Position numbers and translations under genes: made by a program
Notes under the pieces: generated by a model
What the model was told of the DNA's origin: nothing
Seen by the model: only the letters and a program-made list of their open reading frames with translations
Databases searched by the model: none
NCBI RefSeq assembly: GCF_905205995.1
Contig: NZ_CAJLFU010000001.1
DNA length: 64,000 nt
Origin: an uncultured Haemophilus sp.
GTDB taxonomy: Bacteria > Pseudomonadota > Gammaproteobacteria > Enterobacterales > Pasteurellaceae
Strand: one strand, 5' to 3'
Part shown: positions 3,279-63,126 of the stretch, piece after piece
How the letters are laid out: each line of letters begins with the position of its first letter
Position numbering within the stretch: the first letter of the stretch is position 1

Positions 3279-3312
3279 AAAAGTGCGGTTAAAATTAACC
3301 GCACTTTTATTT
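3279..3312 (+). terminator. USS inverted-repeat terminator (aagtgcggttaaaattaaccgcactttt)
   Basis: Perfect Hin-USS inverted pair followed by a T-run. Confidence 0.6.
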
Positions 3313-4526: not shown

Positions 4527-4557
4527 AAAAGTGCGGTCAATTTTAACCGCACTTTTT
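4527..4557. terminator. bidirectional USS-pair terminator (aagtgcggtcaattttaaccgcactt)
   Basis: Lies between the convergent setA-like and pgi genes, with T-runs on both sides. Confidence 0.6.
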
Positions 4558-7377: not shown

Positions 7378-8784
7378 CTAATAATCATCTCTGTATTCAC
7401 GCTGCTCGGCAAGATTATCAAAGCGTGAGAATTGACCGTTAAATGCTAAACGTACACGACCAATCGGACCGTTACGTTGTTTACCAATAATGATTTCAGC
7501 AACCCCTTTATCTTCGGAATTATCGTTATACACTTCGTCACGATAAATAAACATAATCAAGTCAGCATCCTGTTCAATGGAGCCTGATTCACGTAAGTCT
7601 GAGTTTACTGGACGTTTATCCGCACGTTGTTCCAAAGTACGGTTGAGCTGGGAAAGCGCAATGACCGGGACTTCTAATTCTTTCGCTAATGCTTTTAACG
7701 AGCGGGAAATCTCAGCGATTTCTAAGGTACGGTTATCTGAAAATGCAGGTGCGCGCATTAATTGAAGGTAATCCACCATAATCATGCTCAAGCCCCCATT
7801 TTCGCGATACACACGACGTGCGCGCGAACGCAATTCTGTTGGGGTTAAGCCAGATGAATCATCAATATAAAGATTGTTTTTTTGCTTAAACATCCCAAAC
7901 ACGCTGGCAATTTTGCTCCATTCCGTTTCATCCAAATTTTGACCAGTACGAATTTTGGTTTGGTCCACGCGAGCAAGAGAGGCAATCATACGCATCATGA
8001 TTTGTTCAGCAGGCATCTCCAAACTGAATACCAACACAGGCTTATCACTTGCCATGGCAGCATTTTCACAAAGGTTCATCGCAAACGTGGTTTTACCCAT
8101 AGAAGGACGTGCAGCGACAATGATGAGGTCTGAAGGCTGTAAACCTGCTGTTTTCTTATCTAAGTCAACAAAGCCCGTTGTGACCCCTGTCACACCGCTA
8201 TGATTTTCAAGCTTACTTAAGGTATCAATTCGAGCAATAGTACTTTCCAACACGCTGATCACATTTTGTGGTCCTTCAGTTGAAGAACTGCGTTTTTCAG
8301 CAATAGCAAATACTTCTCTTTCAGCTTCATCCAATACCATTTTGATGTCTTTGCCTTTCGGAGAATAGCTGTTTTCTGCGATACGATTTCCCACAGCAAT
8401 AAGCTCACGCAAAATCGCTTTTTCACGTACGATTTCAGCATAAGCCAAAATATTAATGGCATTTGGCGTGTTATTAGAAAGATCAGCGAGATAAGCAAAA
8501 CCGCCTACGGAATCACTAATACCTTTCGCTTTAAGGGCTTGATCAAGGGTGATTAAATCGATCGGTGTTTGGTTACGCATTAATTCTTCCATAGTTTGGA
8601 AGATTGCTTTATGCGCAAAAGTATAAAAATCCTCAGCGATCACTCTTTCTGCAATACCATCCCAATGTTGATTACTCAACATGATGCCGCCAAGTACGGC
8701 TTGTTCAGCTTCAGTGGAATGAGGCGGGATGCTAACTTGTTCAGTTTTCTGATCAGGTGATTGGATTTGTCGTTGTGATGCCAT
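7378..8784 (-). CDS. dnaB: replicative DNA helicase
   Basis: Walker A GKTTFAMNL and a RecA-like C-terminal domain; 468 aa. Confidence 0.95.
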   Translation of the reverse strand: MASQRQIQSPDQKTEQVSIPPHSTEAEQAVLGGIMLSNQHWDGIAERVIAEDFYTFAHKAIFQTMEELMRNQTPIDLITLDQALKAKGISDSVGGFAYLADLSNNTPNAINILAYAEIVREKAILRELIAVGNRIAENSYSPKGKDIKMVLDEAEREVFAIAEKRSSSTEGPQNVISVLESTIARIDTLSKLENHSGVTGVTTGFVDLDKKTAGLQPSDLIIVAARPSMGKTTFAMNLCENAAMASDKPVLVFSLEMPAEQIMMRMIASLARVDQTKIRTGQNLDETEWSKIASVFGMFKQKNNLYIDDSSGLTPTELRSRARRVYRENGGLSMIMVDYLQLMRAPAFSDNRTLEIAEISRSLKALAKELEVPVIALSQLNRTLEQRADKRPVNSDLRESGSIEQDADLIMFIYRDEVYNDNSEDKGVAEIIIGKQRNGPIGRVRLAFNGQFSRFDNLAEQREYRDDY

Positions 8785-8888
8785 AAGGATTTCAATTTAA
8801 ACTAAAAAACTGTGCTTATGATACCGCAAATACGAGGTGGTTTTAAGAAAAAAGTGCGGTTAATATTTTCAATATTTTAGAAATAAAA

Positions 8889-10838: not shown

Positions 10839-13082
10839 ATGAATTTTAAATTAAGCCTCATTTCAACCGCACTTTTAACCAGTTTTTCCATTTCTACGTT
10901 TGCAGAAACTGAGCAGGCCGTAGATACAAATACCGAGACGCTTGAGCAAATTAACGTTCAAGATACAGGGATTAAACAAAATGGTTACCAAACGACGGGG
11001 ACATCTGTCGTATCAAAAGCTGAAGTGCCAGTATTCGACACGCCAAACACAGTAAATATTCTTTCAACTAAACTACTAGAAGATCGCAAACCTGAATCAC
11101 TCATTGATGCACTTTATAACGTCAGTGGTGTGAGTCAAGCGAATACGTTAGGTGGTATGTTTGACTCTATTCAAAAACGTGGTTTTGGTGGAAACCGTGA
11201 CAACTCAATTATGCGTAACGGTTTACAAGCTGGCCCCGCTAAAAACTTTAGCGCGACAACTGAAACCGTTGAAGTTTTAAAAGGTCCTGCATCTGTACTT
11301 TATGGTATTCAAGATCCAGGTGGTGTAGTTAATATCATTACTAAAAAACCACAACAAACGCCACGTTATGTCGTTGGTGGAACCTTAGGTAATCATAGCC
11401 TGTGGGGAACGCAATTAGATTTTACTGGTGGCTTAGGAAATGGTTTTGCTTACCGCTTTATCTATGACAAACAAGAAAAAGATTACTGGCGTAATTTTGG
11501 CAAAGTGAAAAATACGACTTACGCCCCTTCTCTTTCTTGGGAAAATGATAAAACTAAAGTGCTTCTTTCTTATGAACACAAAGATATTCTTGAACCATTT
11601 GATCGTGGTACAAATCTTTTAACGGCAACCAATGCCTTACCGGATATTCCTGCATCGCGTCGTTTAGATGAACCCAATAATGAAACAACCGCAAAAACCG
11701 ATAATATTGATTTCAAAATTGAACACAAATTAAGTGACGGTTGGAAATTAAATGCGGGTTATAGCTATGCTCGTTACAAATATTTCTACGACCAAGCTCG
11801 TATTACAAATATTAACGTCACAGATGTTGCTATCCCTGCAGTGAAAAATAAAAAAGGCGAGATTACCTCTCCTGCATTAAGTGCACGTCATGTACGCCGA
11901 GAGATTGAACAGCAACAAGGTGACCAGCGTGTTCATAGTGGCACATTAAATATTGTCGGTGAATTTGGTATTGGTGATATTGCTAACCGCTTTGTAGCGG
12001 GTATTGATGCAATGCGTAATATTCGTGATCTTGGTCCGATTTATAACAAAGGTATCATGAATTCGGATATTAATATTGATAATCCAAACTATACCAGCCC
12101 TGTTGCGGAACATAAAAATGGTAACGGCAACGCCTACCAATATAACTATCTCAAAACTGTTGGGATTTATATTCAAGATACCGCCTACTTTACCGATAAC
12201 TTTATTATGACAGGTGGTTTACGTTATGAGTATTTTGATCAATTTGCAGGACGTCATTGTTTAAATGCGGCAAACTGTAAAAAAGGTCAAAATCTAACAA
12301 AAACCGGAAATACCGATCAGCATGATGGTAAATTATTGTATCAATTAGGTGCCGTATATAAATTTACGCCACATATTGCGACCTTTGCAAACTACTCCGA
12401 ATCTTTCCGTCCACAAATGAGTGTGGCAACACCTGTTAGCGGCGATTTAAAACCAGAACAAGGTAAATCTTTTGAAATTGGTGCAAAATACGAAAACTCA
12501 GGCTTTAATGCGACACTTGCATTATTCAATATTACCAAACGTAATGTGGCTGAGGCTGTTGGTTCTGGTTCAAATGCGCAATTGAATATCGTCGGCAAAC
12601 AACGTTCTCGTGGTGTGGAATTTGATCTTAATGGTCAAATTACGGATAGTCTAAGCGTAGCGGCTAACTATACATACACCAAAGTAAAATCACTTGAAAA
12701 TGAACGTTATCCTGATGCGGTAAATCAACAACTTTCTGGTGTACCAAAACATCAAACTTCTCTATTCCTAGCTTATAACGTAGGTGAATTTGATTTTGGT
12801 AACATCCGTGTTGGTGGTGGTGCTCGTTATTTAGGTTCTTGGCATGCTTATAACAGTGATTACACAAAAGCATACAAATTACCTCATGCCGTGGTATATG
12901 ATGCCTTTATTGCTTACGATACCAAAATCTCTGGCAAGAAAGTCTCTTTCCAACTTAACGGTAAAAACTTAACAGATAAAACTTACTATCCATCTACCTC
13001 TGGTAACGCAACAAATACGTTAATCCCTGTTGCATTAGGTTATGGACGTGAATTTATCTTCAACACGAAAGTTGAGTTTTAA
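10839..13082 (+). CDS. TonB-dependent outer-membrane receptor, YddB-like
   Basis: Signal peptide; TonB-box-like TLEQINVQ; plug plus 22-strand barrel length (747 aa); terminal Phe. The downstream YddA-like ABC reproduces the E. coli yddB-yddA arrangement. Confidence 0.85.
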
Positions 13083-36562: not shown

Positions 36563-37661
36563 ATGTTTGAAATCAATCCAATCAAAAACAAAATCGCCGA
36601 CCTTTCCGAGCGCACTTCTGTGCTTCGGGGGTATCTTTGACTTCGACGCAAAAGTCGAGCGTTTAGAAGAAGTTAATGCCGAATTAGAACAACCCGATGT
36701 GTGGAACGAACCTGAAAAAGCCCAAGCACTTGGGAAAGAGCGCGTTTCACTTGAACAAGTGGTTAATACCATCAAGAATTTAGAACAAGGTCTAGAGGAT
36801 GTTGAAGGACTGCTTGAATTAGCCGTTGAAGCGGAAGATGAAGAGACCTTCAATGAGGCTGTGGCTGAATTAGATGAGCTTGAACAACAACTCGCAAAAT
36901 TAGAATTCCGCCGCATGTTTAGCGGTGAACACGATGCATGTGATTGTTATGTCGATTTACAAGCGGGATCTGGTGGTACAGAAGCACAAGACTGGACGGA
37001 AATGTTACTTCGCATGTACCTTCGCTGGGCAGAAAGCAAAGGCTTTAAAACAGAATTAATGGAAGTCTCTGATGGAGATGTCGCAGGTTTAAAATCAGCG
37101 ACGATTCGTGTCAGTGGTGAATATGCTTTCGGTTGGTTACGTACAGAAACCGGTATCCATCGTTTAGTGCGCAAAAGTCCATTTGACTCTAATAACCGTC
37201 GCCATACATCATTTGCAGCAGTTTTTGTTTATCCTGAAATTGATGATGATATTGATATTGAAATCAATCCGGCTGATTTACGCATTGATGTTTACCGTGC
37301 ATCTGGTGCAGGTGGTCAGCACGTCAATAAAACTGAAAGTGCGGTGCGTATTACTCACATGCCAAGTGGGATTGTCGTGCAATGTCAAAACGATCGTTCT
37401 CAACACAAAAATAAAGATCAAGCCATGAAGCAGTTAAAAGCGAAATTGTATGAGCTTGAGTTACAAAAGAAAAATGCGGACAAACAAGCGATGGAAGATA
37501 ATAAATCTGATATTGGTTGGGGCAGCCAAATTCGTTCTTATGTGTTAGATGATGCGCGTATTAAGGATCTCCGCACAGGCGTTGAAAATCGTAATACACA
37601 AGCCGTATTGGATGGCGATCTTGACCGCTTTATTGAAGCGAGCTTAAAAGCGGGACTTTAA
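36563..37661 (+). CDS. prfB: peptide chain release factor 2 (programmed +1 frameshift at codon 26)
   Basis: ATG at 36563. Frame 0 reads [25 protein letters not shown] then TGA. The shift site AGG GGG TAT CTT TGA C (CTT 36635-37, TGA 36638-40) with an upstream SD-like AGGGGG is the classic RF2 recoding site. The +1 frame continues [11 protein letters not shown]…SPGQ (…GGQHVNKT…). Confidence 0.9.
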
Positions 37662-37678
37662 TCATCTCTTTTATACAA

Positions 37679-37712
37679 AAAAAGTGCGGTCAATTTTAAC
37701 CGCACTTTTTTA
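37679..37712. terminator. bidirectional USS-pair terminator (aagtgcggtcaattttaaccgcactttttt)
   Basis: Perfect inverted USS between the convergent prfB and ycjF genes. Confidence 0.6.
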
Positions 37713-38780
37713 TTACACTTCTTCTTTTTCTTTCACTTTATTCTTGCCTAACACCACATCTTTCATCACCGTCAGCAATTCTTTTTGCACATGAGAAAGT
37801 TTTGGTTTTTCCGACTTTTCAAATGCCAGTGGACGACAAAACTCCATAGCCTTAATGCCCAATCGAGCGGTCAATAATCCCACGCCAAGCCCCTGCGCTG
37901 CTCGTGCTGAAAGTTTCGCAGTAATATCTTGTGAAAGCCAATCCATGCCTAAATCTTGCACGATTTCAGTTGCACCAGCAAAAGCAAGATTCACTAACAC
38001 CATTCTGAGTAAACGAAGGCGGGTAAAATACCCAAGCTCAATCCCATAAATCACTGCAATTTTATTGATTAAACGAATATTTCGCCACGCAATAAAAAAC
38101 ATATCAATAATGGCTAAAGGACTGATTGCCACAATCACCGCTGATTCTGCTGCCATTTTAGTAATCAGTTTTTTCGCTTTTTGATCAAAAGACTGTAACA
38201 CCGTTTGACTAAATAAATGGGTAACTTCGCGAGCTGAATAACTTTCATTCAACTGTTTTTCCCATTGGACAATTGCGGGATGTTGCGAATCCAATTTTAA
38301 GGTATCTGCAATCGATAAACACAAGGCTCTTCCTTTCTCACTATCCTGTTCAGAAAAAACGTGATGGTTTTTAACCGCACTTTCACCTATTAATCGCTGA
38401 CTTTGTTCTTGTAAATTTAAGCGTTTTTTAAGTTTCACCAAACGTCGCCATTCTGCGATGATTTCAGATAAACCAAACAACACAACGACAAAACTCACCA
38501 AGGCAAAAGCAAGATAAATCCATTGTTGATTTTGATAACTATCCCAAATCCATTGAACAGATTGCGCAACCGTCGCCCCTAAAAATAAAAGTGCGGTCAA
38601 TTTCAAAGCCGTTTTCCAACCACTCGGTTTAGGCTTCACAATTTGCTCAAATTGCTCGTCCAACAACTCCCCTTCTAAAGGTTCGTTATCGATGGTTGTT
38701 TCAACATTATAAAACTCCTGCTTAGGCAGAATTTCTTCCTCTTCGGGTTGGTGAGATTGTGTGAAAATTTGTTTTGTCAT
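37713..38780 (-). CDS. ycjF: UPF0283 inner-membrane protein YcjF
   Basis: Collinear with E. coli YcjF (acidic N-terminus, …VQWIWDSYQ…, TM segments, EWRRL). Likely start MTKQIFT; the ORF extends to 38861. Confidence 0.8.
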   Translation of the reverse strand: MTKQIFTQSHQPEEEEILPKQEFYNVETTIDNEPLEGELLDEQFEQIVKPKPSGWKTALKLTALLFLGATVAQSVQWIWDSYQNQQWIYLAFALVSFVVVLFGLSEIIAEWRRLVKLKKRLNLQEQSQRLIGESAVKNHHVFSEQDSEKGRALCLSIADTLKLDSQHPAIVQWEKQLNESYSAREVTHLFSQTVLQSFDQKAKKLITKMAAESAVIVAISPLAIIDMFFIAWRNIRLINKIAVIYGIELGYFTRLRLLRMVLVNLAFAGATEIVQDLGMDWLSQDITAKLSARAAQGLGVGLLTARLGIKAMEFCRPLAFEKSEKPKLSHVQKELLTVMKDVVLGKNKVKEKEEV

Positions 38781-38961
38781 TATTCTTTCCAATAAAAATA
38801 GAGACGGTATTTTACTTCGAATTTCTTTAGCAAATCTTAAATGGCTGAAATAAAAAAGCAATATTGACTAAAAAATAAAATGAGCTACTATAGCCATTGT
38901 CCACAATTAGTTTATCTAATGTGTTAAGTTTTAACTGTTAACTAACTAGAAGGATCTTTTC

Positions 38962-40068
38962 ATGAAGAAACTTATCGCCACTGCGGTGCTCTCCGCGTGT
39001 TCAATGGCTTATGCCAATACCGACATTCCAAACTACAATACCGATTCTCATCTGTATGAATTCACTCAAACTTATGACTTAGTTGCGCCAAAAGGTTCGC
39101 AAGGACAAGCGAATCTGTGGGTGCCTTTACCGTTTAATGGCGAGTATCAACAGGTAAAATCTATCCATTTTGAAGGTAACTATTTGGATGCCTATGTGAC
39201 AGAAAACAACAAATATGGTGCGAAAACCCTCTTTGCAACTTGGGATAAAGATGCACAAAAACGCGATTTAAAAATCACAATGGTGATTGAAACCAAAGAT
39301 CGCGAACCAATGGTTAAAGGTTTGTTGACGAATTACAAGCCACCAAAAGACGTTCACTATTCTGTTGATGTACAAGAATATTTAAAACCGACTCAACATA
39401 TTAAAACAGATGGTATTGTGAAACAGTTCGCCGATAAAATTGTAGGCACAGAAACCAATCCATTGAAAAAAGCTGAGTTGATTCACCAATGGATCGTCAA
39501 CAATATGGAACGTGATAATTCTGTTTTAGGCTGTGGTGATGGTGATGTAGAAAAAATCCTAACCACTGGTGTGCTAAAAGGCAAATGTACCGATATTAAC
39601 TCTGTTTTCGTTGCACTTGCTCGTGCCAGCGGTATTCCTGCTCGTGAAATTTTCGGTATTCGTTTAGGTGCGGCGGATAAAATGGGCAAATATTCCAAAG
39701 GTGCTTTCGGTAGTGCGGATGAACATGGCGTAGCAAACGTGAGTGGTGGTCAGCATTGTCGTGCTGAGTTCTATCTTGCTGGATTCGGCTGGGTGCCTGT
39801 TGATTCTGCAGACGTGGCAAAAATGCGTTTAGCAGAGAAAAAATCTATTGAAGATAGCGATACGCAAGCTGTAGCTAAATATTTATTTGGTAACTGGGAA
39901 GCAAACTGGGTTGGCTTTAACCATGCTCGCGACTTTGATTTATATCCGCAACCAGAACTTGCTCCACTCAATAACTTTGGCTATCCGTACGCCGAAATCG
40001 GTGGTGACCCGTTAAATTCATTTGATCCAAAAGAATTTAAATATGACTACGTCTCTAAAAAGCTCTAA
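38962..40068 (+). CDS. transglutaminase-like (TGc) periplasmic lipoprotein
   Basis: Lipobox LSAC. TGase core [30 protein letters not shown] (Cys), HCRAEFY (His), WVPVDSAD (Asp). Confidence 0.7.
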
Positions 40069-40405
40069 TAAATCTTTTTGGGTTGCGATTGCCACCGCGC
40101 TAAGTGCTGCGGTGGCATCAACCTTGTGCTGCATTGCGCCTTTAATCTATTTAGTTTTTGGCGTGTCATCCACATGGTTGATTGGCTTGGGTGAATATGA
40201 TTATTTACGCATTCCTATGCTTATCGTTTCATTATGCGCCTTTGCCTACGGCTTTTGGTTGCTGATGTTTTCCAAAAAAATCATCTGCAGCAAATACATT
40301 TCCCGTAAAAAGCTCATTGTTTTGTATTGGATTGTATTTATCGTCATGATGTTTTTCTTAACTTATCCAACCATTTTACCGTGGATTTTAGAGCTTTCTA
40401 ATTAG
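40043..40405 (+). CDS. MerT-like membrane protein (mercuric-transport family, Cys-Cys motif in TM1)
   Basis: ...[18 protein letters not shown]... matches the MerT TM1 CC motif. 3 TM segments. The ORF opens at 40022 and overlaps the TGc gene in another frame; the internal ATG at 40043 is the likely start. Confidence 0.6.
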
Positions 40406-40414
40406 GAACAAAAA

Positions 40415-40693
40415 ATGAAGAAATTAACGACCGCACTTTTGCTTTCATTATTCATCTTCTCTATTGCGCAAGCGGAAGAAACAAAGCAAGTTGTGCTAAA
40501 AGTGAATGAAATGAACTGCCAGCTTTGTGCTTATTTAGTGAATAAAGAGCTACGCAATATTGATGGCGTAATTTCCACTAAAGCCTCGATTAAAGATAGA
40601 ACGGTGACTGTTGTAGAAGATCCAAAAGTTTCCGATGAACAATTGATTAATGCGATTCATAAATTAGAATATACGGCAGAAGTAGTTAAATAA
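40415..40693 (+). CDS. MerP-like periplasmic heavy-metal-associated (HMA) protein
   Basis: Signal peptide. HMA fold with metal-binding site NEMNCQLC (CxxC). 92 aa. Confidence 0.65.
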   Translation: MKKLTTALLLSLFIFSIAQAEETKQVVLKVNEMNCQLCAYLVNKELRNIDGVISTKASIKDRTVTVVEDPKVSDEQLINAIHKLEYTAEVVK

Positions 40694-40707
40694 AGCGCTA
40701 GAAAAAT

Positions 40708-40763
40708 AAAAGTGCGGTCAATTTTGAGAAGTTTTAAAACTCATTAAATTTGACCGCACTTTA
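40708..40763 (+). terminator. USS inverted pair with long loop (aagtgcggtcaa…ttgaccgcactt)
   Basis: Direct and inverted USS 32 nt apart, downstream of the merP-like gene. Confidence 0.4.
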
Positions 40764-41144
40764 TATCTGGGTATTTAAAATTATATTCAACTCAAATATC
40801 AATCTATCCAATATTACCATCGTTTATTCCTAGCTTCAATTATCAAAACTAAAGTCGCCATTGCTGCGGATCCATTTAGCCAGAAATATGCCATTTTCTT
40901 AAAATCAGAAAAAGAATAACTATCAAGTTTTAGAAGTAGTTCAAACAAACTAAATGCTAATGTAGAAAATGTAAAACAAATAATAAATATAATTACCCAA
41001 AATATAAGGTATTGAAGCAATAGTTTAATTTTCAATATTCCCCCCTATATGTCCGCTCATTATCATCAAACACATTACTAATTTAAATATATTTATCAAA
41101 TAACTACCAATGGTTCGGTATAGTGTTGCCTTAGATTTAAACAC

Positions 41145-41178
41145 AAAGTGCGGTCAAAATTGACCGCACTTTTTTATC
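41145..41178 (-). terminator. USS-pair terminator downstream of sodC (aaagtgcggtcaaaattgaccgcactttttt)
   Basis: Perfect inverted USS with flanking T/A runs. Confidence 0.6.
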
Positions 41179-41192
41179 TTTCGATAATCGAC

Positions 41193-41753
41193 TTATTTAA
41201 TCACGCCACATGCCATACGTGGGCCGCCACCGCCAAGTGGAGCTGGATGATCTGAGTGGTTATCACCACCAGCGTGAATCATAATAGAGTGACCACGAAC
41301 TTCATCTAATTTTTTAAGACGAGGCGCTAAAACAGGGTTAGTTGCTGTACCATCATGTAATACAGTTAAAGCCGGTAAGTCACCTAAGTGAGCATCATCT
41401 TGCCATGGGTAACCGTGTTGTTTTGTACCTTTAGGATCCCAGTGACCGCCAGCCGCTAAACCTGCTGTTAATTTACCGTCTTTTTCTTTTGGATCACAGC
41501 TTGGATTTTCATGAATGTGGAAACCATGTAAACCTTCAGCTAAACCTTGTAGGTTTGGTGTAAACACTAAACCATAATTTGATTCAGTAATCGTTACAGT
41601 CCCTACATCTTTGTTACCATTTGCAGGATCTAATTGTTGTACTTTTACTTCGATTGAAGGACCTGCTGGTTTTGCCATATGGTCATGTGCATTTGCCACG
41701 CCAGCAGCACAAATTCCGCTGATTGCTAATGCTAAGAGAGTTTTCATTTTCAT
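41193..41753 (-). CDS. sodC: periplasmic Cu,Zn superoxide dismutase
   Basis: Signal peptide. His-rich N-terminal HDHMAKPAG. Cu/Zn ligands ([12 protein letters not shown]…; GGHWDP; HAGGDNHSD). The ORF extends to 41783. Confidence 0.85.
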
Positions 41754-41862
41754 CATAAGCTCCTTTACTTTAGAAAGACTCAAGTTAATTCTACCTAAAT
41801 ACCAATAAAAAAATAGTGGTTTATATTAAATATTTGACAATTAAATTGATTTGATTTTTCTA

Positions 41863-43272
41863 TCAATCAAACCTATCCGCCAATAAAAACTGCAAGACTG
41901 CATCCATTCTTAAATGCGGGATGCTTTCACCTTGTTGTAAAACTTGAGGTTCAAAGGAATCAAAATCAAAAGATTGTTTTGACCAGAACTCAGCATTAGG
42001 TAGTTTACTTGGAACAGATCCTGGATAAAGTGTAATCAGTTGTTTATCTAAAGAACGCACACCTTGAATAGCTTTGATTTGTTTACCGTTTTGATTAACT
42101 AAAACCTGTTTTGTTGCTCTAATCGCAGCAATTGCCGTATATTCTGTATCAATCCCTTCAAATTCAACATGACGACCGCCTTCTTGCACCAATTGGCGCA
42201 TCAGGCTGATTAGGTTTTGAATTTGATCTGTCGTGATATGATCGGCTTTTGTTGCCACAAACATGAGTTTATCAATATTCGGGGAAAACAAGCGATTAAG
42301 TAAATTGCGTTTCCCATAATGGAAATTTTTGAAAAGCTGATTAAGCCCCGTTTGCATATCGATAAAGGCTTGTTGACTGTGATTCAGTGGCGTTAAGCAA
42401 TCGGCTAAAATCACCTGGCGATCAAAAGTAGAAAAATAATTTTCATAAAAGCCTTTCACCACCTTATTACGATAATAATCATATCGCTTATTCAACACGG
42501 CAAAATAGCTATTGGATTTCGCTTCTCTTTTCAGTTTTTGCCATTGTTCTTCCGACAAATGCAATAACGGGAAAAATTGCAAAACAGGTGCGCCTTCTAA
42601 TTCCCCAGGCAAGACAAATCGGCCTGGTTGAATAAATTGCATTCCTTCTACTTTGCAGGCAAGCAAATAATCGGTATAAGATTTTGCAATCTGCGCTAAA
42701 ACATCTTCATTAACGACCGCACTTAGATCGAGTTTTTTCAGTTTATCCAACCAATCTTGAGCAAACTGCTGGCGAATACCTGATGTAATTTTAGCTTGTT
42801 CAAGTGACCATTGTTGAAAATCTAAATTCAGCAAAGGTAAATCCAATAGCCATTCACCAGGGTAATCAAAAATATCCAAGTATAATGTACCACGTTCTTT
42901 AAAATGGCGAAGTAAGCCTGATTGGCGTTCAAAACGAATAGCAAGACGTGTTTCACTTACCCCTCGGGTAGATTGGCACCATTGTGGAGGATTATTCATT
43001 AAATCATTGAGATTCGCTTCATAATCAAAACGTGGAATACTTAAATCCTGCTGTGGCACACGTTTTACTGCCAAAATAGATTGATTTCGGGCAGCCTCAA
43101 ATAAAGGAAGATGAGCATTTCCCTCTTGATTAATATATAACAATTGATTAATCAAGCTCGTAATAAAGGCTGTTTTACCGCTTCGACTTAGCCCTGTCAC
43201 AGCTAAACGTAAAGTGCGGTCAAATCCACGATTGATTATTTGATTAATTTCCCGATTAATTGATTTAAACAT
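41863..43272 (-). CDS. ycjX: YcjX-like P-loop ATPase (DUF463)
   Basis: N-terminal P-loop LAVTGLSRSGKTAF; 469 aa. In E. coli it is the operon partner of ycjF. Confidence 0.85.
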   Translation of the reverse strand: MFKSINREINQIINRGFDRTLRLAVTGLSRSGKTAFITSLINQLLYINQEGNAHLPLFEAARNQSILAVKRVPQQDLSIPRFDYEANLNDLMNNPPQWCQSTRGVSETRLAIRFERQSGLLRHFKERGTLYLDIFDYPGEWLLDLPLLNLDFQQWSLEQAKITSGIRQQFAQDWLDKLKKLDLSAVVNEDVLAQIAKSYTDYLLACKVEGMQFIQPGRFVLPGELEGAPVLQFFPLLHLSEEQWQKLKREAKSNSYFAVLNKRYDYYRNKVVKGFYENYFSTFDRQVILADCLTPLNHSQQAFIDMQTGLNQLFKNFHYGKRNLLNRLFSPNIDKLMFVATKADHITTDQIQNLISLMRQLVQEGGRHVEFEGIDTEYTAIAAIRATKQVLVNQNGKQIKAIQGVRSLDKQLITLYPGSVPSKLPNAEFWSKQSFDFDSFEPQVLQQGESIPHLRMDAVLQFLLADRFD

Positions 43273-55891: not shown

Positions 55892-55912
55892 TAAATTTAA
55901 GGAAAGTGCGGT

Positions 55913-55935
55913 TAAAAATAACCGCACTTTTTTAC
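55913..55935 (+). terminator. USS-pair terminator after lysC (aaagtgcggttaaaaataaccgcactttttt)
   Basis: Perfect inverted USS followed by a T-run. Confidence 0.6.
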
Positions 55936-57334: not shown

Positions 57335-57372
57335 AACCGCACTTTGGCATAACCAAGTGCGGTTATTTTTTT
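57335..57372 (+). terminator. USS-pair terminator after purA (aaccgcactttggcataaccaagtgcggtt)
   Basis: Inverted USS followed by tttttttt. Confidence 0.6.
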
Positions 57373-63088: not shown

Positions 63089-63126
63089 TAAGTGCGGTTA
63101 AATTGAACCGCACTTTTATTTTTTAT
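63089..63126 (+). terminator. USS-pair terminator (taagtgcggttaaattgaaccgcacttttatttttt)
   Basis: Inverted USS followed by a T-run after ATPase 2. Confidence 0.6.

Follow-up and report, generated by a model that had tools for sequence, protein, structure and literature searches.

A conserved transglutaminase-like, MerT-like and HMA gene triad from Haemophilus: a candidate selenium acquisition module

We describe here a concrete, widespread and genetically tractable candidate for the means by which bacteria acquire trace selenium. In a 64,000-nucleotide (nt) window from an uncultured Haemophilus sp. (contig NZ_CAJLFU010000001.1), three co-directional, tightly packed open reading frames (ORFs) at positions 38962-40693 encode an exported transglutaminase-like (TGc) protein, a MerT-like membrane protein and a secreted protein of the heavy-metal-associated (HMA) family. 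We propose that this triad acquires selenium through a thiol relay and is subject to SelB-type feedback, a reading to which we assign a probability of roughly 55% and which rests wholly on comparative genomics and RNA-structure inference. Selenium is preferred over metals as the cargo because of two independent lines of evidence, namely, the selenocysteine (sel) genes next to the triad in several lineages and a leader hairpin resembling a selenocysteine insertion sequence (SECIS). That the triad may further represent the first bacterial system dedicated to the high-affinity acquisition of selenium, combining a selenium-releasing TGc enzyme, a Mer-type relay and a SECIS mimic read by SelB, is a suggestion that we put forward tentatively.

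Conservation of the triad and its cysteines

A genome scan found a TGc relative in at least 560 species, of which the best 80 loci were examined; with a further sample of 80 metagenome contigs or loci, our survey covers about 160 loci altogether. The order TGc>MerT-like>HMA is kept in every one of them that has enough downstream sequence. The triad occurs in many Pasteurellaceae genera and in Shewanella, Citrobacter, Leclercia, Atlantibacter, Serratia, Budvicia, Providencia and Rosenbergiella, as well as in the betaproteobacterium Mesopusillimonas, a Campylobacterales metagenome-assembled genome (MAG), an Acidobacteriota MAG, and Arcobacteraceae and further Campylobacterota. A sequence-only reading of the window, made without database searches, had taken the triad for a functional unit whose genes should co-occur beyond this lineage. 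They do so amid unrelated flanks, over no fewer than five orders and three phyla, which strongly supports the view of the triad as a conserved unit of function. Clustering of 1333 neighboring ORFs revealed no fourth conserved partner or linked regulator, only order-level synteny. The start of the MerT-like ORF overlaps the end of the TGc gene by 26 nt in a different frame, an overlap also kept in other lineages, and ORF calling recovered the same coordinates and packing that had been read from the letters alone.

Pfam searches, which the sequence-only reading had named as a check, matched all three expected families (Transglut_core, MerT and HMA). The TGc protein contains a Transglut_core domain (3.9e-24, 85.5 bits), and its Cys-His-Asp triad, previously seen to be intact, proves to be invariant across 26 homologs (Cys209/His265/Asp281). 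Two extra invariant cysteines lie beside the active site across the wider family, Cys191 (GCGxGD) and Cys266 (QHCRA), and the family is recognized by the hallmark motifs GCGxGD, GKC[TA]D and QHCRA. The N terminus is a Sec-type signal peptide with a signal peptidase I site (AxA) conserved within Pasteurellaceae, and homologs outside this family carry twin-arginine (Tat) signals (RRxFLK). The protein had been presented as a lipoprotein, a status that finds no support in these signals or in the lipobox cysteine (Cys13 in LSAC), which is not conserved even among Pasteurellaceae. The TGc protein is thus predicted to be periplasmic, and its lipidation is doubtful. An AlphaFold2 model (pLDDT 86.8) comprises an N-terminal β-sandwich and the TGc core, the best PDB matches being 3ISR and TgpA. 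Since PDB sequence and fold searches returned uncharacterized TGc proteins only, the structure yields no function.

The MerT-like protein scores barely above the Pfam MerT cut-off (34.3 versus 32.9 bits; 2.6e-8) and reaches 31.6 bits against the cut-off of 150 for the NCBIfam MerT equivalog; these profile scores suggest a member of the MerT superfamily that is no equivalog. It has three transmembrane (TM) segments, with a CC pair in TM1 (LCCIAP, Cys29/Cys30) that is invariant in three distant homologs. The sequence-only reading was right about this pair and about the absence of a second one, to which we add that the TM2-TM3 loop keeps a single invariant cysteine, Cys82. The HMA protein (Pfam HMA, 2.4e-9) begins with a hydrophobic signal ending in AQA, as read off the sequence, and carries an invariant CxxC (Cys35, Cys38). 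It reaches 39.4 bits on the NCBIfam MerP equivalog (TIGR02052; cut-off, 92.55). Among NCBIfam models, UxxU_metal_bind fits it best, with 53.8 bits against a cut-off of 95. The CxxC motif reads GMTCPLC in Shewanella and DMDCSLC in the Acidobacteriota MAG; the HMA protein of the window has no canonical GMTCxxC but, as first noted, NEMNCQLC in its place. In RefSeq, the three proteins are named "transglutaminase family protein," "mercuric transporter MerT family protein" and "heavy-metal-associated domain-containing protein."

A thiophilic metal, as proposed from the sequence alone, is an alternative cargo: the HMA protein would bind Cu(I), Hg(II), Ag(I), Cd(II) or Zn(II) in the periplasm, MerT would import the ion, and TGc would be an accessory, for example by freeing metal from thiol or peptide complexes. 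The Pfam matches to MerT and HMA, the invariant CxxC and CC of the same kind as those of MerP and MerT, and the scores of the HMA protein on both CopZ and MerP models speak for this possibility. However, both proteins score far below the MerT and MerP equivalog cut-offs, the second cysteine pair of MerT is missing, and plasmid-borne copies are found outside resistance islands. Moreover, no merA, merR, copA, cueR or other metal gene appears in more than 160 neighborhoods. A Pfam search of the genes called in the window over about 8 kb to the left and right of the triad detected neither Pyr_redox (MerA) nor MerR, in line with the absence of both that the sequence-only reading had stated. The recurrent neighbors are instead sel genes, the fusion partner is the chalcogen carrier TusA, and the leader is SECIS-like. 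We therefore consider metal handling unlikely. Of the earlier proposal of thiophilic capture and import, the cysteine relay remains a reasonable mechanism, whereas the metal cargo finds no link to metal resistance genes and is displaced by a genomic context and a leader that indicate selenium.

Selenocysteine genes and the SECIS-like leader

Several Campylobacterota carry sel genes divergent from the triad. In the Campylobacterales MAG (locus L079), selB<selA<orf<selD faces TGc>TusA-MerT>HMA; in Aliarcobacter-like L180/L181, selD is divergent from the triad; and in Malaciobacter marinus (L192), selB<selA<selD is, with an operon resembling that of formate dehydrogenase-N (FDH-N) 4 kb away. As identity among their TGc proteins is only 46-64%, the sel-triad divergon is old and long-lived. 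The selD gene of M. marinus (7730-8800, minus strand), which one gene caller shortened to 326 amino acids (aa), itself has an in-frame TGA in its GxGCK-type loop (AAG-U-AAKMG) and is predicted to encode a selenocysteine-containing SelD.

A tblastn search of plasmid records extended this association to distant TGc paralogs (33-37% identity) that share the cysteine motifs (GCGxGD/GKCxD/QHCRA) and come with no MerT or HMA gene; several of them sit in selenocysteine clusters, in which selD recurs (Table 1). Adjacency to sel genes thus concerns the triad in L079, L180/L181 and L192 and TGc alone in L176, L177, L178, L091 and L095. Altogether, about 7 of about 45 sampled lineages are sel linked, against a chance expectation that we put well below 1% per lineage as a rough estimate with no computed background. 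In Hyphomicrobiales, a small secreted protein rich in Gly, Thr and Pro is encoded between selD and the TGc paralog (L095, 8066-8356; L091, 13340-13825; L178, 7373-7768); it has no Pfam match and a common motif, GSTGW(T)GG. The Terrarubrum locus adds a TlpA-type periplasmic thiol reductase. Both proteins may be alternative partners that take the place of HMA and MerT.

The paralogs also raise the possibility of a selenium-related role other than import, either periplasmic detoxification or buffering of reactive selenium or the maturation or repair of Tat-exported FDH-N. TGc does cluster with fdnGHI and fdhE in Alpha- and Betaproteobacteria and in Malaciobacter, most TGc homologs are Tat exported like FDH-N, and alphaproteobacterial versions do without MerT and HMA. 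Against this role, L079 and L180 have sel genes but no formate dehydrogenase gene in the flanks examined, a cytoplasmic TusA fusion implies delivery to the cytoplasm, and the MerT family transports inward, as is established for the MerT proteins of Tn21 and Tn501. We judge such a role improbable.

The fusion in question is encoded by L079 (11120-11677), where the MerT-like protein bears an N-terminal TusA domain (Pfam, 38.3 bits versus a cut-off of 28.6), with selenium_YedF, a protein of selenium metabolism, as its best NCBIfam match. TusA domains usually carry persulfide sulfur, and the triad might accordingly serve generic periplasmic thiol, persulfide or sulfur trafficking (import of persulfide or thiosulfate, or redox repair), with the selenium link as a by-product of the similarity between sulfur and selenium. 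The TlpA thiol-disulfide reductase next to the Terrarubrum paralog and the many TGc family members with no sel neighbor would fit this explanation. Nevertheless, it is the selD, selA and selB genes that recur as neighbors, not cys, sox, dsr or tus, and the leader mimics a SECIS and not any sulfur-responsive element. Such generic trafficking is, in our view, quite improbable.

This leader provides the second line of evidence for selenium. Upstream of TGc lies a dyad whose arms vary among lineages yet remain complementary. On the sense strand, it folds into a 4-bp lower stem, one bulged 5′ U, an upper stem of 4-5 bp and a loop of 3-5 nt, (A/G)GU(U/C); in the window, the hairpin ends 10 nt 5′ of the Shine-Dalgarno sequence AAGGA (38950-38954). 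Of 134 unique upstream regions, 77 fit a strict descriptor of this structure, whereas the match rates were 1.0% for shuffles, 1.3% for random windows and 2.2% for reverse complements. The low match rate on the opposite strand (2.2% versus 57%) argues for an RNA feature rather than a symmetric DNA operator. Operators of the Zur, Fur, ArcA, CRP or LexA-like type were rejected in view of the covarying arms and of the strand-specific bulged U and GU loop. Among 20 variants, 156 of 160 stem cells are paired, including all 80 of the upper stem with 2-5 pair types per position, compared with a mean of 106 and a maximum of 120 in a partner-shuffle control, although the alignment was parsed by hand with the hairpin known and these counts lean towards structure.

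The E. coli fdhF and fdnG/fdoG SECIS elements and the selAB leader share this architecture: the U on the 5′ side is bulged, the upper stem has 4-5 bp, and the loop contains GU (Table 1). The fdhF sequence used for comparison is present at 99% identity or more in 5412 of 5421 matching E. coli records. The Enterobacteriaceae triad leader and the fdhF SECIS have the octamer CAGGUCUG in common, and Pasteurellaceae variants (U-GGCAA-GU-UUGCU) resemble fdnG (U-AGCAA-GUC-UUGCU). The bulged U and the G and U of the loop are the determinants recognized by SelB. The original work on the selAB leader is reportedly that of Thanbichler and Boeck in 2002. As cited in PMC13449736, the selAB element is bound by SelB with GTP and selenocysteinyl-tRNA (Sec-tRNASec) and represses selAB. 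Like the selAB element, the triad hairpin belongs to a 5′ leader and follows no UGA; unlike it, it precedes a putative transport operon instead of sel genes, and we suggest SelB binding only by analogy. A true SECIS serving an upstream selenoprotein ORF is ruled out, as the 40 nt upstream contain no TGA. What the hairpin shares with its selAB counterpart is a place in the leader; it is no recoding signal.

The distance from the hairpin to the Shine-Dalgarno sequence is 2-10 nt in Pasteurellaceae and about 100 nt in Enterobacteriaceae, where a short, conserved upstream ORF (uORF) lies between the two. In Citrobacter, Leclercia and Atlantibacter, this uORF (MNxxHRxAxL..LSAVM) starts right after the hairpin, with its AUG within the extended lower stem, and runs up to or into the TGc start (L064, 9838 onward; L065, L068, L071, L078 and L127). 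It could encode a leader peptide coupling the state of the hairpin to TGc translation. Other searches around the leader were negative: Rfam families matched neither positions 38600-41200 of the window nor the leader of Citrobacter, the Malaciobacter leader hairpin shows no clear resemblance to the SECIS of its own selD, and no Pasteurella selD was found in the plasmid collection that might have provided a native Pasteurellaceae SECIS. Two overlapping near-copies of the leader motif at 12956-12988 (minus strand) lie inside the coding sequence of a TonB-dependent receptor (10839-13082) and were judged to be chance products of AT-rich repetitive codons. Between selD and TGc, Arcobacteraceae have in common another conserved hairpin, one with no bulge, GCAUA-GGU-UAUGC or CCAUA-GGU-UAUGG (L180, 6204-6426; L192, 8767-9000), one copy of which folds far better than shuffles (z = -3.25).

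Taking both lines together, a relay for selenium acquisition may be outlined. TGc, exported by the Sec pathway in Pasteurellaceae and the Tat pathway elsewhere, would use its papain-like Cys-His-Asp site and two extra cysteines to attack a selenium-carrying substrate (a selenotrisulfide, or another selenium-thiol or selenium-peptide conjugate) and would keep the selenium as a cysteine-bound adduct. The secreted HMA protein would receive it on its CxxC, and the MerT-like protein would hand it from the CC pair of TM1 to its one loop cysteine at the cytoplasmic face. A cytoplasmic acceptor, for which the TusA/YedF-like domain fused to MerT in one Campylobacterales lineage is a candidate, would then pass it to SelD. 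When selenium is plentiful, SelB with Sec-tRNASec would bind the leader hairpin and lower operon expression, as in the E. coli selAB analogy. Given the invariant CxxC, CC and loop cysteine, a thiol relay from periplasm to cytoplasm is reasonable; what is carried and in which chemical form, which way it is transferred (by analogy with MerT) and the binding of SelB are what we infer.

Several observations weigh against a role in selenium acquisition. The HMA and MerT folds classically handle metals, and E. coli uses selenium with no triad, which a search at blastn sensitivity found in none of 5,426 complete E. coli genomes. In the window and in all sampled Gammaproteobacteria (about 30 lineages), the triad has no sel gene within 10 kb, and many TGc members lacking MerT and HMA are not sel linked (Salipiger, Alloyangia, P0127, P0130, P0133, P0140 and P0145). 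The TusA fusion is limited to one Campylobacterales lineage (L079 and one 92%-identical cluster). As for the hairpin, it was not found in the leaders of Shewanella, Serratia, Budvicia, Providencia or Arcobacteraceae, and that of Haemophilus is short and AU rich, with a folding energy no better than that of shuffles.

The Haemophilus locus and its sodC neighbor

Table 1 Features of the triad locus in the window, with hairpins and TGc paralog contexts used for comparison
Feature	Position in window	Strand	Details
Promoter-like site TTGACT-16 nt-TACTAT	38864..38891	+	Consensus scan, 9/12 matches
SECIS-like leader hairpin	38918..38939	+	AAUG / bulged U38922 / GUUA / loop AGUUU / UAAC / UGUU
TGc gene	38962..40068	+	368 aa; ORF call, Pfam
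MerT-like gene	40043..40405	+	120 aa; ATG 40043, stop codon 40403-40405
HMA (MerP/CopZ-like) gene	40415..40693	+	92 aa; 9 nt past the MerT-like stop; AGGAA Shine-Dalgarno sequence
Inverted pair of uptake signal sequences (USS; AAGTGCGGT)	40710..40761	.	Long hairpin right after the HMA gene; USS 40710-40718 (+), 40753-40761 (-)
Actinobacillus leader hairpin			AAUA-U-AACA-AGUU-UGUU-UAUU
Lonepinella leader hairpin			AAUA-U-GGCA-AGUU-UGCU-UAUU
Citrobacter, Leclercia, Atlantibacter leader hairpin			CAGU-U-AACA-GGUC-UGUU-AUUG
Rosenbergiella-like leader hairpin			GACC-U-CCGC-AGGU-GCGG-GGUU
E. coli fdhF SECIS			GG-U-UGCA-GGUC-UGCA-CC
E. coli fdnG and fdoG SECIS			GG-U-AGCAA-GUC-UUGCU-CC
E. coli selAB leader			GCCC-U-UCUC-CGUGU-GAGA-GGGC
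TGc paralog, Terrarubrum			selA-fdhE-fdnIHG, divergently TlpA>TGc>small secreted protein>selD
TGc paralog, Phyllobacterium			fdn/selA, divergently TGc>selD, 38-nt gap
TGc paralog, Rhizobium, S. meliloti pSymA			selD>small secreted protein>TGc; selB, selA, fdh nearby
TGc paralog, Cupriavidus sp. EM10			selA>selB>TGc>selD; TGc stop overlaps selD start

In the window, the operon is bracketed by a promoter-like site and an inverted USS pair. Promoter-like sites are no more numerous in the region than in shuffles, which makes this one a merely plausible start; if transcription begins there, the leader hairpin would fall within the 5′ untranslated region. The USS pair is probably the terminator of the operon, its loop exceeding the length limit of our terminator scan. 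On one flank lie dsbC, prfB and ycjF (DUF697), and on the other lie sodC, ycjX (DUF463) and a sapA-like gene of a sap-like peptide ABC transporter. The USS content of the window and its TGc protein, which recurs identically in H. parainfluenzae genomes and on contigs from human oral and gut metagenomes, assign the window to a Haemophilus of the parainfluenzae group.

The sodC gene is convergent to the triad and lies 70-500 nt downstream of it in H. parainfluenzae, H. haemolyticus, H. quentini, Aggregatibacter kilianii, Rodentibacter heidelbergensis and one metagenomic relative. In H. parainfluenzae, the triad and sodC sit between ycjF and ycjX (window 37713-43272), two genes that belong to one operon in E. 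coli; in the others, the outer flanks differ. Because the same four-gene block occurs in other contexts in H. haemolyticus, A. kilianii and Rodentibacter, the triad and sodC appear to have moved together, which suggests a mobile block exchanged recently as an island.

Proximity to sodC had led the sequence-only reading to imagine that the triad supplies copper to the periplasmic Cu,Zn superoxide dismutase SodC, and the persistence of sodC next to the triad where the outer flanks differ would suit a copper chaperone. The idea is weak, however, since the association is limited to this Haemophilus/Aggregatibacter/Rodentibacter island and one metagenomic relative. The 10-kb flanks of the triad contain no sodC in the other Pasteurellaceae genera or in any other order sampled, and two close relatives, H. 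seminalis L027 and L053, have the triad with no sodC. The convergent orientation precludes co-transcription, the TGc identities of 88-93% across sodC-adjacent genera point to one recently exchanged island, and a MerT-type importer would move its cargo the wrong way for metallating a periplasmic enzyme. We regard a copper chaperone for SodC as highly improbable.

Further features of the region deserve mention. The spacer between the HMA gene and sodC (window 40694-41192) ranges from about 70 to about 1000 nt among H. parainfluenzae strains and looks like an indel hotspot inside the island; in the window, it contains a 73-aa hydrophobic ORF (40814-41035, minus strand) with no Pfam match. The Hin-type uptake signal AAGTGCGGT is present in 49 copies in the window, where 0.3 would be expected by chance. 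Many copies form inverted pairs just 3′ of genes (3281-3306, 4529-4554, 37682-37707, 40710-40761, 41146-41171, 55904-55929, 57336-57363 and 63090-63115), where they probably double as terminators. The prfB gene has the classical programmed +1 frameshift site (36564-36645), with the ATG at 36564, a Shine-Dalgarno-like GGGGG and CTT TGA C at 36636-36642, past which the long ORF carries on in the +1 frame.

Relation to known systems

A 2022 review (PMC9312934) holds that no high-affinity selenium transport system has been identified. MerT is mentioned in a 2022 preprint by Haft only as a selenoprotein family, and the "transglutaminase-like enzyme" in Lin et al. 2015 (PMC5322559) is an unrelated one that figures in one table only. 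Our literature search found no description of the TGc-MerT-HMA triad or of its link to selenium, in agreement with the earlier impression of a possibly undescribed module. If our proposal is correct, hundreds of proteins annotated as "mercuric transporter MerT family protein" would be reassigned, a Mer-type thiol relay would prove to have been adapted to a chalcogen, and a large orphan TGc family would gain a role. The leader would become a second natural target of SelB translational control, extending SelB riboregulation past selAB. The candidate operon is found in Haemophilus, Pasteurella, Actinobacillus, Citrobacter, Shewanella and Arcobacter, and the proposal, if correct, would also bear on the competition for selenium between the host and mucosal bacteria. 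Even with a metal as its cargo, the triad would count as a new system on the strength of its strict three-gene conservation and structured leader.

Among proteins of known structure, 3ISR from Cytophaga hutchinsonii and the periplasmic domain of TgpA (6G49) share with TGc the N-terminal β-sandwich and a transglutaminase/papain-like Cys-His-Asp core. The TGc family is, however, only about 15% identical to them and differs in its two additional invariant cysteines (GCGxGD and QHCRA), its Tat or Sec export and its fixed MerT/HMA or selD context. The sir genes of Shewanella and mcc genes of Wolinella, which deliver copper to octaheme sulfite reductase, were considered as a parallel and set aside: the Shewanella triads stand in unrelated contexts, and the literature offered nothing.

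A functional analogy may be found in systems that pair a cysteine-bearing membrane protein with a TusA-like cytoplasmic carrier. One of these, YeeE/YeeD, takes up thiosulfate. The other, YedE/YedF, is a candidate selenium transporter with its TusA-like partner (Lin et al. 2015, PMC5322559), predicted, as here, from its selD neighborhood. The membrane protein of the triad is nonetheless unrelated to YedE, being of the MerT type and not Sulf_transp (PF04143), and the triad adds two periplasmic components, TGc and HMA, with TusA fused in one lineage only.

Also close in design are the MerT/MerP pairs for mercuric-ion uptake of the Tn21 and Tn501 mer operons, in which a secreted CxxC protein of the HMA fold is likewise encoded beside a small protein with three TM segments and a CC pair in TM1, and a ligand-exchange relay from periplasm to cytoplasm is the likely common logic. 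Compared with mer operons, the triad lacks merR, merA and merB, scores far below the equivalog cut-offs, and has one loop cysteine where MerT has a cytoplasmic pair. It has an obligatory TGc partner, encoded first, and its neighbors and leader indicate selenium. Finally, it is chromosomal in commensal and environmental bacteria instead of being carried on resistance transposons. Therefore, the triad may be viewed as a thiol relay of the Mer type in which the obligatory partner and the mode of control are new and the cargo is probably new as well.

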